64,000 bases of DNA from Eubacteriales bacterium (GTDB lineage: Bacteria > Bacillota > Clostridia > Oscillospirales > CAG-272): positions 8,493 through 72,492 of the forward strand of contig JBGVRO010000052.1 in NCBI GenBank assembly GCA_045128515.1, given 5' to 3'. The notes under the pieces were generated by a model. The model was not told the origin of the DNA and made no database searches. It was given only the letters and a program-made list of their open reading frames with translations. This document shows positions 48,065-52,062 of the stretch, piece by piece (position 1 is the first letter of the stretch; each line of letters begins with the position of its first letter). The position numbers and the translations under genes were made by a program.

Positions 48065-48093
48065 TTGATTTTTCATACTTTGTATGATATAAT
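48065..48093 (+). promoter_or_regulatory. Putative sigma-A promoter (TTGATT-17 nt-TATAAT, TGn-extended) for the helicase gene
   Basis: TTGATT at 48065..48070, a 17-nt spacer ending TGA, TATAAT at 48088..48093. AAAGGAA SD before ATG 48202. Confidence 0.55.
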
Positions 48094-48201
48094 TTTAATT
48101 GTAAAATAATGTAAAAACGAAAATTTGCTGCAAAGACAATATTTAAATCATCAAGACAGTTGGTTGATATTGTCGATCTCGGCAGAAAGGAATAGTCGTT
48201 T

Positions 48202-49062
48202 ATGGGCAAGAGCATCTACACTTATTACAAAGAACGCCTGATTGAGATCGGTGGAAAAAATAAGTGTTTATATCTGAAGAATATTTCCAAGAAGAACTCT
48301 TATGATATAGGTCGCATTTTCGAGGGACGCGAGGATAAGGTAGCCGAGCTGCTTAAATTCCTCTGGACAGCAGGAAAAGAGCCTCTCTCTCTCATTTGCC
48401 GCGAGGAAACTCACGAGCTGATGGGTAACCTTGGCATGGTAGAAGAGCCCGAAGTAGATGAAAGCTCTGTCAATACCGCCGAGGAATACGAAAAGGCTGA
48501 AAAGAAACGCAAGAAAAGAATTACCTCTAGTCAGACCAAGTTAATTGAAGCCGAGGTTGCAAAGATAAAGGAGCTTAAGCGCGAGGTCGAGGAAATCGAG
48601 CGCGAAACAGGTAAATACGAGCTGTATATCGGTTATCCCTTTGTATTTGGCGCAATTCAGCAGGGTCCTACAAAGACACTTATCAAAGCCCCCCTTATGC
48701 TCTTCCCTGTCAAGATCGACATTCTTGACGACGAGACGGTCGACATTCGCTTCAACTCAAACGAAAATATACAGATAAACAAAGCACTTATTCTCGCATA
48801 TGCACAGTCGAAGAAGATCAACGTTGACGAGCTTGAAACCGAGTTTGAGGATCTGTCAGACTTCAGAAGCTTGCTTTCTGTTATTCAGTATCTTGGCAAG
48901 GCAAGAATCCGTATTGAATGCAAGGCATCGAAATATATTTATAATTACGCAAGATTTAAAGAGCCCGATGCACAAAAAGGCGATCTTTCTGTAAGATACG
49001 CGGCTGTGCTTGGCCGTTTCCCTATAACCAACTCGTTATACGGCGACTACTGTGTGCTTTAA
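48202..49062 (+). CDS. N-terminal fragment (286 aa) of the split helicase: DUF4011-like region
   Basis: ELYIGYPFVFGAIQQGPTKTLIKAPLMLFPVKIDILDDETVDIRFNSNENIQINKALILAY resembles the DUF4011 core. Ends at the TAA within …SLYGDYCVL. Confidence 0.65.
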   Translation: MGKSIYTYYKERLIEIGGKNKCLYLKNISKKNSYDIGRIFEGREDKVAELLKFLWTAGKEPLSLICREETHELMGNLGMVEEPEVDESSVNTAEEYEKAEKKRKKRITSSQTKLIEAEVAKIKELKREVEEIERETGKYELYIGYPFVFGAIQQGPTKTLIKAPLMLFPVKIDILDDETVDIRFNSNENIQINKALILAYAQSKKINVDELETEFEDLSDFRSLLSVIQYLGKARIRIECKASKYIYNYARFKEPDAQKGDLSVRYAAVLGRFPITNSLYGDYCVL

Positions 49063-49215
49063 AAGAAAAATCTAACAAACGACGCAATCGACGAGCTGCT
49101 TCGCACAGGAGGACAGTTCAGCAAAAAGAGTCTTGTACTTCTTGATAAAATAAAGAAAAACGGCAAATTCCTTCGCGCTAAAAGAACGCCCCCCAACTCG
49201 AGCTATATTGTAAAG

Positions 49216-52062
49216 ATGCTCGACTACGCACAGTCGGAGGTGGTAAAAAAGGTTGACCGTATGGGTAACATGGTTATCTACGGTCCTCCCGGCACAGGAA
49301 AGTCGCAGACAATAGTAAACATCATCACAGATGCGCTCTGCAAGAAAAAGCGCGTGCTGGTAGTGTCGCAGAAGAAGGCGGCGCTTGACGTAGTATATTC
49401 CCGTCTCGGCAGGTTGAATGACAAGGCAATGTACCTGACCGACGAGTCAAAGGAAAAGCGCAAATTCTACGAAAGATGCTATGAGGCACACAAGAGAGCC
49501 GAGGAGGATCAAAAGACCAACCTGCAGGCTCTTATCGATGAGTATAACGACCTTCAAACAAGAATTGATAACGAGGAAAAAATCCTCACCGACATTGAGC
49601 ATCTGTTATGCGACAAGCGTCCCTTCGGTCTGTCACTGTCCGAAATGTATTCAAGCTCTTATATGCTACAGAAGAATTCATCGGAATATGCGGCATATCT
49701 CAGAATGATTGAGTGTAAGAACGTTATGTCTCTCACCTACAAGGAGCTGTCGGATGCGATGTTTACCATCAAGGCAAACAACATCATCGAAACCTATTAT
49801 TCCTTCGTCCAGTCGAAGGAAAAGAATCCCATTATCGACAGCATGCGTCAGGATATTGAGCTTCCTGCAATTGCCGAGGTCAAGGCAAAGCTTGTAGAGA
49901 TCCAAAAATCGCGCAAGGGATTCTTTAACATCACGAAATATCCTTACACAAGACAGGTGCTGGCTCACTATGCCATGCTTGAAAATCCTGCCGCCCTTCA
50001 TTCGCTTGCAAAAATGGAATGCAGACTTGAAAACACAAATCCTCTTTTCAGAGGACTGAAGTCCAAGATCGTTGAAGAGAAGATGAAGGAGACTCTTGCC
50101 GCAATAGGCGAGTTTGTTAAGGAATACGACTGTCTTCATCAGGTTATGACAAAGGACGGCTACGTCTCGGTTATCGACAATATACTCAGAGGCAATACCG
50201 CCTATATCAAGCTGGTTCACGAGGCACTCGATAATTATATTGCCCAGCGTGACGTAAGCATGCTGCTCGGCACACTTGACAAGAATATGCTTGACATTTT
50301 GAACTTTGCATACGAGTCGAGTAAAAATTATTCCAACTATCTTGATATTATTGATAAGATCCCCGTGATCCGTATGTATCACGAGCTTATAGTATGCGAG
50401 GAAAAGCTTCGCGACGAGCTTACAAAGATAGTTGATTTCCCCAATGTAACGGCAAGAATTTACAAGCTGAAGGAAGCTCAGCTTACCGTTTCGCAGAAGA
50501 TCTGTCAGGCTATGGCAAGTCAGGAATATCAGACCCTTTATGCCAACGCAGAAGATGCCAAGGATTATCTCTACCAGATCTCCAAGGACAAAAAGCACTG
50601 GCCTATCAGACGCGCTATGGAGATGTACAGCAGCTTTATTCTCTCGCTATTCCCCTGCTGGCTGCTCTCACCCGAAAACGTTTCATCGCTTTTGCCCCTT
50701 GAAAAGAACCTGTTCGACATCGTTATCTTCGACGAGGCATCACAGGTATTTATTGAGAGCACTATACCCACGATCTACCGTGGAAAGAACATTGTGGTTG
50801 CGGGAGATGCAAAGCAGCTTCGTCCCTCTGCCACCTTTATGAAGCGCTATCTCGGTGCAGATATAGACAACCTTGAGGATCCGTCGGTACAGGCGGCACT
50901 TGAAGTAGAAAGTCTGCTCGACCTTGCGGTTGCGAGATACAGTAGCGCAAATCTTACCTACCACTACAGAAGCCGTCATCAGGAGCTTATCGACTTCTCA
51001 AACTGTGCATTCTATTCGGGTGGACTTCAGGTTGCACCTAACATCTATACCGAAAGAAGTGGCAGACCTATTGAAAGATACAAGGTGGATGGCAAGTGGC
51101 AGGATAGAAAGAACCTTGCCGAAGCAAAGAAGATCGTTGAGATAGTAAGAGATATTCTTGCTACAAGAAAATCAAACGAGAGCATCGGCATTATCACCTT
51201 CAACAGCGACCAGCAGACCTGCATTGCCGATGCGATCGACAAGGAGGCGCAGAAGGACAGCAAGTTCCGTGCCGCGATCGCAAAGGAAAAATGCCGTATG
51301 GACGGCGGTGAGGACACAGGTCTGTTTATAAAGAACCTTGAGAACGTACAGGGTGACGAGAGAGATATTATTATCTTCTCCATCGGATATGCGCCCAACG
51401 AGCAGGGTCGTGTATACACGAACTTTGGTTCGCTCTCTGCCGAGGGCGGTGAAAACCGTCTTAACGTTGCGATCACAAGAGCAAAGAACAAGATCATCGT
51501 GGTAACAAGCATTGAGCCCGAGGATCTTAAGGTTGACGGATCAAAGAATCAGGGACCGCGTCTATTACGCGATTACCTTGCATACGTCAGATCGGTTTCT
51601 GAGGGCGACGGTGAAAATGCAAGAGCTATTCTTGGCGGACTGAACCCCCATGACATCGGAGGTACAAGACCTGCTCTTGTCTCTGCGCCGAGTATCGAGG
51701 AGCAGATGAAGGAACGCCTTGAGAAGCTTGGATACAAGGTCAAGATCGGCCTTGGAAACAAGAACAGCAGAATCTCGGTTGCGGTTTATGATGACAGCTG
51801 TGACACATACCTTGTAGGCGTTGAGCTTGACAAGGATGCCTTTGCAGGCTCGTCGTCGGCTATGGAGCGCGACGTATACAAGCCTAAGTTCCTCGAGGGA
51901 CGCGGGTGGAAGATCATACGAGTGTGGAGTCGAGATTGGTGGCTATCCCCTGCCCGTGTGGTACGTTCGATCGTTAATGTGGCTGAAAAGAACCGTACCC
52001 AAGGCACACCGCCAAAAGCAATGACAAAATCCTCACTTCAAGAGGAAAAAGTCGAGGAATAA
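49216..52062 (+). CDS. C-terminal fragment (948 aa from the first ATG) of the split helicase: SF1 helicase core + Vsr/DUF559-like domain
   Basis: Helicase motifs GPPGTGKSQTIVNII, IVIFDEASQV, VVAGDAKQLRP, YHYRSRHQELIDFSN, VQGDERDIIIFS and NRLNVAITRAKNKIIVV. C-terminal LEKLGYKVKIG…VGVELDKDAF…RDVYKPKFLEGRGWKIIRVWSRDWW. No SD precedes ATG 49216. Confidence 0.65.
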   Translation: MLDYAQSEVVKKVDRMGNMVIYGPPGTGKSQTIVNIITDALCKKKRVLVVSQKKAALDVVYSRLGRLNDKAMYLTDESKEKRKFYERCYEAHKRAEEDQKTNLQALIDEYNDLQTRIDNEEKILTDIEHLLCDKRPFGLSLSEMYSSSYMLQKNSSEYAAYLRMIECKNVMSLTYKELSDAMFTIKANNIIETYYSFVQSKEKNPIIDSMRQDIELPAIAEVKAKLVEIQKSRKGFFNITKYPYTRQVLAHYAMLENPAALHSLAKMECRLENTNPLFRGLKSKIVEEKMKETLAAIGEFVKEYDCLHQVMTKDGYVSVIDNILRGNTAYIKLVHEALDNYIAQRDVSMLLGTLDKNMLDILNFAYESSKNYSNYLDIIDKIPVIRMYHELIVCEEKLRDELTKIVDFPNVTARIYKLKEAQLTVSQKICQAMASQEYQTLYANAEDAKDYLYQISKDKKHWPIRRAMEMYSSFILSLFPCWLLSPENVSSLLPLEKNLFDIVIFDEASQVFIESTIPTIYRGKNIVVAGDAKQLRPSATFMKRYLGADIDNLEDPSVQAALEVESLLDLAVARYSSANLTYHYRSRHQELIDFSNCAFYSGGLQVAPNIYTERSGRPIERYKVDGKWQDRKNLAEAKKIVEIVRDILATRKSNESIGIITFNSDQQTCIADAIDKEAQKDSKFRAAIAKEKCRMDGGEDTGLFIKNLENVQGDERDIIIFSIGYAPNEQGRVYTNFGSLSAEGGENRLNVAITRAKNKIIVVTSIEPEDLKVDGSKNQGPRLLRDYLAYVRSVSEGDGENARAILGGLNPHDIGGTRPALVSAPSIEEQMKERLEKLGYKVKIGLGNKNSRISVAVYDDSCDTYLVGVELDKDAFAGSSSAMERDVYKPKFLEGRGWKIIRVWSRDWWLSPARVVRSIVNVAEKNRTQGTPPKAMTKSSLQEEKVEE

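Follow-up and report, generated by a model that had tools for sequence, protein, structure and literature searches.

The 64,000-nucleotide (nt) window analyzed here, the whole stretch from position 8,493 to 72,492 of contig JBGVRO010000052.1 (assembly GCA_045128515.1, Eubacteriales bacterium), carries a helicase-nuclease gene of the ProA/Hhe superfamily that is interrupted by an in-frame stop codon. From the sequence comparisons presented below, this copy is probably a very recent nonsense allele private to one strain, with an error in the draft consensus as the main rival explanation. Unless stated otherwise, coordinates are positions of the window and features lie on its forward (+) strand. 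A single frame of 1,286 sense codons runs from ATG 48202 to TAA 52062, and the sole interruption among its 1,287 codons is a TAA at 49060-49062, codon 287 (...GDYCVL*KKNLTND...). As a result, the annotation contains an open reading frame (ORF) of 286 amino acids (aa), from ATG 48202 to TAA 49062, and a second one of 948 aa, from ATG 49216 to TAA 52062. Both share the same frame, and the 153 nt from 49063 to 49215 (codons 288-338) continue it without any stop. A first-pass annotation of the window had described this layout, with the TAA as the only lesion, and the ORF list and the translation confirm it.

The stop was not found in any relative. More than 120 homologues recovered in a protein search are intact, with lengths of 1,249-1,316 aa and identities of 63-99%, and position 287 is a Glu in 119/120 of the homologues aligned, so that a stop at codon 287 is not a chance observation. 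All relatives for which DNA was compared have GAA at this codon, including 9 conspecific alleles. From the 90%-identity cluster (39 members), 13 full-length conspecific members were examined and every one was intact. Records of the 286-aa and of the 948-aa product exist for a single contig, the one that contains the window. An exact-pattern scan in which the three variable sites were left free returned only the common allele in the JGI metagenomes, and the same scan of species-representative genomes gave no match. The first-pass annotation had suggested looking for an intact codon in orthologues, and both the DNA alleles and the protein alignment contain it. A recurrence of the stop at codon 287 in relatives was considered and rejected, the stops flagged in four genomes (G012, G015, G028 and G031) being the terminal stops of the genes themselves.

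We then considered the age of the lesion. A comparison with the 9 conspecific alleles gave 24 sites private to the window gene, 19 of them synonymous third-position changes. After the stop, 13 private changes are synonymous and at most one codon is non-synonymous (V1260, present in other alleles too). This excess points to purifying selection on the helicase-nuclease part through essentially all of the separate history of the strain, and therefore to a very young stop; judged from these substitution counts, the stop is very recent. The flanking housekeeping genes exhibit ordinary private changes, synonymous in majority, and no other stop, which indicates that the assembly is not generally error-ridden. 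A recent inactivating mutation, with a sequencing error as its rival, was also the alternative preferred in the first-pass annotation, and the private stop, the conserved Glu287 and the synonymous excess after the stop all agree with it.

The stop belongs to a cluster of four window-private substitutions within 38 nt (49023..49060), all absent from the 9 conspecific DNA alleles: a synonymous change at 49023, T>A at 49027 (S276T), G>T at 49036 (V279L) and G>T at 49060 (E287*). The three non-synonymous changes affect invariant or nearly invariant residues and their states occur in 0/120 homologues; position 276 is occupied by S (118 sequences) or A (2), position 279 by I or V. The cluster suggests either one multi-nucleotide mutation or a local consensus artefact. 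In the first case, the stop and the two missense changes beside it would have arisen together or very nearly so, one event of this kind being the simplest origin. Compared with ordinary pseudogenes of costly bacterial defence genes, the allele has in common a single private nonsense change in a selected gene and relatives that were broken independently; it differs by the tight clustering of the nonsense change with two unprecedented missense changes.

The following points weigh against a genuine nonsense allele of a defence-type gene. In a gene of 3,861 nt, three unprecedented non-synonymous changes inside 34 nt have a probability of ~2e-4 (8e-4 for any three of the four), and a local consensus artefact would give the same cluster pattern. 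Moreover, the protein scores below the curated cut-offs of both the ProA and the Hhe families and does not contain DUF3320, which a passage of PMC13700489 reports as essential in ProA, and any anti-phage activity of the short clade to which the protein belongs is putative.

If the cluster were an assembly or consensus artefact, the gene of the organism would be intact, and T49060, together with A49027 and T49036, would stem either from errors clustered locally or from a minority or chimeric path that the assembler took. Such an artefact is possible, if on balance doubtful. The three changes lie within 34 nt, occur in none of the 120 homologues and 13 conspecific alleles and are joined by the private synonymous change at 49023; in addition, the genome is a 78-contig draft, the variant is found on no other public contig and the remainder of the gene looks fully selected, all of which speaks for an error. 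By contrast, the neighbouring genes are stop-free with a normal spectrum of private changes, and real broken copies of this helicase-nuclease family are common elsewhere. Furthermore, k-mer assemblers seldom fix several substitution errors within 40 nt without repeated read support.

Two other origins of the cluster were rejected. Gene conversion from a paralogue does not agree with a gene that is single-copy in the genome and with three residue states that occur in no homologue. For a template switch or hairpin origin, neither arm templates the observed bases, and the stabilization of the hairpin is not significant. Without the changes at 49023, 49027 and 49036, positions 49023-49040 would form an imperfect hairpin of 5 bp, one of them a G-U pair; with these changes, they contain the perfect 6-bp inverted repeat TATAAC-N6-GTTATA. 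In a simulation, 16% of random triple substitutions stabilized the 49023-49040 region equally, and the gain of the inverted repeat is probably coincidental.

Returning to the nonsense allele, we analyzed the signals for its expression. The best promoter-like site is a sigma-70-type promoter at 48065..48093 (TTGATT-17-TATAAT with an extended TG, 10/12 matches), identical across 4 aligned intact conspecific alleles. A Shine-Dalgarno (SD) sequence, AAAGGAA, was read at 48186..48192, 9 nt before ATG 48202, and is invariant in the intact alleles. Promoter, leader and SD match the intact alleles base for base, except for one leader base (48158). No purine-rich SD precedes ATG 49216, and the 49063-49215 interval contains no in-frame ATG, GTG or TTG. 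The first-pass annotation had attributed a good promoter and SD to the gene and no SD to ATG 49216, in agreement with the site scan and the sequence.

Codons 1-286 (48202..49059), the only part translatable from the normal start, encode an N-terminal module that contains DUF4011. In an AlphaFold2 model of residues 1-338 (predicted TM-score 0.71), the predicted local distance difference test (pLDDT) is 80-95 for approximately aa 25-275 and falls from aa 276, which places the stop just beyond the folded module. The model displays a long helix (aa 93-136) followed by a beta-sheet (aa 141-192), and a Foldseek search of the PDB with this module gave no structural neighbour (best E = 0.98). Codons 288-338 begin with a conserved LEKKxLTNDAIxELL motif, followed by a variable linker, and Met339, encoded by ATG 49216, is invariant among the aligned homologues. 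We propose that in the assembled sequence of this strain a G-to-T change converted the conserved Glu287 codon into TAA, and that translation from the intact promoter and SD would end just beyond the folded N-terminal module. The helicase-nuclease part, which has no start signal of its own, would probably not be made, and the outcome would be a null or, at best, a severely hypomorphic allele.

Alternatively, the two ORFs could form a functional two-piece system, in which translation would restart at Met339 and the resulting 948-aa helicase-nuclease would cooperate with the 286-aa DUF4011 module, as in the split Prometheus system of a Lokiarchaeon. A two-gene Prometheus variant is indeed reported from a Lokiarchaeon in a passage of PMC13700489, the breaks in several other copies of the family fall at aa ~205-332, and both the invariant Met339 and the stop just past the confidently folded module (the pLDDT falls from aa 276) would suit such a division. 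However, we consider it very unlikely: ATG 49216 has no SD and follows 153 nt that are untranslated after the stop, the stop falls in a conserved motif, where it removes a nearly invariant Glu, and not in the variable linker, and the split is private to one contig. In addition, the breaks in other copies are spread as far as aa 483 and ~1030, are mostly frameshifts and come from a search biased to short N-terminal pieces. It can also be imagined that the break is not accidental, and that S276T, V279L and E287* represent a selected remodelling of the domain boundary that frees the DUF4011 module. The product would be either a two-component Prometheus-like variant or a DUF4011 protein that stands alone and has a role to itself, and this would fit the other copies interrupted at aa ~205-332 and the two-gene archaeal Prometheus described in a passage of PMC13700489. 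Such a remodelling seems to us most unlikely.

To a programmed read-through or recoding of the TAA, which would yield the full-length protein, we give next to no credence. Its sole favourable point is the open and conserved frame beyond the stop. More long ORFs of this genome end in TAA (760 of 1,094, 69%) than in any other stop, and none of the 40 tRNAs found in the 2.0-Mb genome is a suppressor (0/40 with anticodon UUA, CUA or UCA); recoding was rejected on these two results. All relatives encode Glu at codon 287 (119/120 in the alignment), and this TAA is followed by A, for which we know of no leaky context. A deliberately split or read-through gene, as entertained in the first-pass annotation, is consequently disfavoured by the main-stop usage of TAA, the 40 tRNAs without a suppressor, the missing start signal and the scattered lesions elsewhere. 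As in a recent pseudogene, a conserved sense codon has given way to a stop that only this copy carries, and no recoding machinery accompanies it. A crude genome-wide count of same-frame ORF pairs, used as a proxy for pseudogenes, gave 116 pairs, was dominated by tight operons and was uninformative.

Seven other copies of the family are also broken by frameshifts or stops, on metagenome or metagenome-assembled-genome contigs (L025, L026, L027, L041, L042, L043 and G002:C318). Their lesions are scattered (aa ~205, ~248, ~296-326, 332, ~390 plus ~1030, ~420 and 483) and most are frameshifts. The one in G002, a frameshift near aa 420, is the only lesion among the species representatives of the genus that were surveyed. 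The search for these copies was biased to short N-terminal pieces, and some lie on low-coverage contigs and may be errors. These lesions show that sporadic inactivation of the family is common, as expected for a dispensable, possibly costly gene. A natural split of the family at aa ~287 was rejected, the short N-terminal homologues being mostly contig-end fragments and the genuine lesions being scattered.

The domain composition of the read-through product was analyzed with Pfam. DUF4011 (PF13195) was detected at aa 12-197 with 29-34 bits, above the gathering cut-off (GA) of 22.2. The 948-codon remainder (49216..52062), starting at Met339, encodes a core of the Upf1-like superfamily 1B (SF1B) helicases and a nuclease. 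AAA_11 begins at aa 342 (70 bits) and the C-terminal RecA-like domain of the helicase corresponds to AAA_12 at aa 904-1103 (50911..51510; 75 bits). The Walker A motif GPPGTGKS (aa 361-368, 49282..49305) and motif II DEASQ (aa 844-848, 50731..50745) are invariant in 121 sequences. Between helicase motifs Ia and II lies an insertion of ~400 aa (~aa 420-830, 49460..50690), and a Pfam search with aa 407-833 found no family for it (best E = 0.024). A PD-(D/E)xK nuclease domain of the Vsr/DUF559-like type, REase_MTES_1575 (PF18741), was found at aa 1166-1258 (51697..51975) with 70-74 bits against a GA of 38.2, and its residues D1197, E1222, R1223 and K1227 are invariant in the same 121 sequences. 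DUF559 itself reached only 18.5 bits, under its GA of 20.6. DUF3320 (PF11784) gave no match even at E <= 1, and the protein stops 28 aa past the nuclease domain. The SF1 motifs and the C-terminal nuclease-like domain pointed out in the first-pass annotation are all present (GPPGTGKSQT, DEASQ, GDAKQLRP, QGDERD, NVAITRAK and the C-terminal GWKIIRVWSRDWW), in agreement with the translation and with the AAA_11, AAA_12 and MTES_1575 matches. Its proposal of DUF4011 and Vsr-like domains also held in the hidden Markov model searches, where DUF4011 and MTES_1575 lie above GA and DUF559 under it. The only solved structures matched by sequence were the Upf1-like SF1B helicases IGHMBP2, Sen1 and Upf1 (E = 6e-10 to 1e-5). 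The core motifs I, II, III, V and VI are shared with these enzymes (IGHMBP2/SMUBP-2, Sen1/senataxin and Upf1/NAM7); in contrast, the eukaryotic enzymes possess neither the DUF4011 module, nor a fused PD-(D/E)xK nuclease, nor the ~400-aa insertion.

We next placed the protein among the curated defence families. With NCBIfam, it scored 563 bits against the anti-phage protein ProA of the Prometheus system (NF058533; cut-off 1500) and 394 bits against Hhe (NF042953; cut-off 2000), the best ProA stretch aligning aa 742-1278 to positions 1213-1720 of the 1903 of the profile. With PADLOC, the top profile was PDC-S37 at 555 bits, covering positions 850-1354 of 1550, a profile for which no curated cut-off is given, and Hhe (PDLC02194) reached 295 bits over positions 1335-1784 of 1911 only. 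In both libraries, the best matched stretch is limited to the C-terminal ~540 residues. The PADLOC candidate PDC-S37 is itself probably related to Prometheus ProA. As a yardstick, a 1,916-aa protein of a genome from another family of the same order (G049) scored 2017 bits over positions 1-1903 of the ProA profile. This full-length ProA is encoded at 3203-8950 (-) of contig L040 (G049:C8) and contains DUF4011 (aa 384-552), the helicase, MTES_1575 and DUF3320. Thus, this order contains both the long and the short (1,286-aa) form.

Since the protein scores under both curated cut-offs and does not contain the N-terminal extension of ProA and DUF3320, the profile comparisons indicate that it is a short three-domain relative of ProA and Hhe and a member of neither family. 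It has in common with ProA a DUF4011, a Upf1/DNA2-like SF1 helicase with a large insertion and an MTES_1575 nuclease, arranged in the same order. With 630 aa fewer than the G049 protein, however, it has neither the ~380-aa region ahead of DUF4011 nor DUF3320 and the C-terminal tail. Outside the Walker A block, only the C-terminal ~540 aa align with ProA (aa 802-1286 in the direct comparison with the G049 protein, which gave 34% identity). Moreover, the present copy is truncated, and its defence role would be one by analogy. Hhe, the single-gene system of Gao et al. 2020 (Gao_Hhe in DefenseFinder), unites DUF4011, an SF1 helicase and a Vsr-like nuclease in one gene, which is also the domain logic of the window gene. 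It differs in size, with proteins of ~1,600-1,800 aa (a gene listed at 4.9 kb; PMC11232893) against 1,286 aa here, and only the C-terminal third was aligned, at the low scores given above. The first-pass annotation had named the gene Hhe-like; its domain composition is upheld by Pfam, but the nearest family is another one, ProA and PDC-S37 outscoring Hhe in the respective libraries (563 vs 394 and 555 vs 295 bits).

The likeness to ProA and Hhe in architecture and in a probable mode of action stands, as far as the analogy reaches. In a passage of PMC13700489 citing van den Berg et al. 2024, Prometheus is presented as a single four-domain protein of Pseudomonas aeruginosa, with all domains reported essential, and as related to eukaryotic enzymes acting on R-loops. 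By analogy, foreign or aberrant nucleic acid would be the substrate on which the intact 1,286-aa protein loads; its helicase motor would drive translocation, and its C-terminal nuclease would cut DNA. An anti-phage role is suggested by this family resemblance.

The genome (2.0 Mb, 44% GC) carries the gene between a gene for a polyferredoxin-thioredoxin membrane protein and yajC. All the conspecific contigs retrieved have the order SecA - 254 aa - Fer4/Trx - helicase - YajC - ThiD - AroA; these contigs were found through the protein itself and thus represent gene-bearing strains only. In at least 10 of the sampled species of the genus that possess an orthologue, yajC follows the gene directly. 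It is present in 7/19 high-quality genomes of the genus, and can therefore be considered accessory at the genus level. The lone insertion between housekeeping genes proposed in the first-pass annotation is too simple a description in view of this shared place upstream of yajC and of the patchy presence of the gene. The gene is chromosomal here and lies in neither a defence island nor a mobile element. A link to mobile elements was rejected: plasmids provided only long relatives of ~31% identity, and phages one weak match. In P. aeruginosa, a DUF4011 gene is a core gene flanking a defence hotspot (PMC10250203).

The stop itself would matter little, whether it represents a loss of function private to the strain or an error of the draft assembly. 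The compact form of 1,25x-1,31x aa, with DUF4011, helicase and nuclease, is widespread in uncultured gut-type Clostridia and falls outside the curated definitions of ProA and Hhe. This compact family is chromosomal, often located beside yajC, and patchy between species; strong purifying selection acts on it, although broken copies recur. Should it be a defence gene, null alleles that occur naturally, like the present one, would be ready-made controls for its cost and benefit, and the compact family could serve as a minimal version for asking which Prometheus domains are really needed.

Finally, some features were observed around the gene. yajC has its own promoter-like site at 52115..52143 (TTGATT-17-TATAAT, 10/12 matches), so that polarity on yajC does not necessarily follow from the nonsense change. 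The leader from the promoter to the start codon of the helicase gene is ~108 nt long (48094-48201) and almost invariant among the conspecific alleles. An Rfam scan of the leader and the N-terminal part gave no family, with a chance-level match to the upstream terminator (21 bits vs a GA of 100). This intrinsic terminator of the polyferredoxin-thioredoxin membrane gene (47975..47999), whose 11-bp stem includes 7 GC pairs and precedes a T tract, sets the helicase gene apart as its own transcription unit. Its loop reads TTTTG in the window (47985-47989) and in 3 conspecific alleles and CAAAA in a further one (contig L001, 3737-3741), a difference that corresponds to an inversion of the loop between identical stems.

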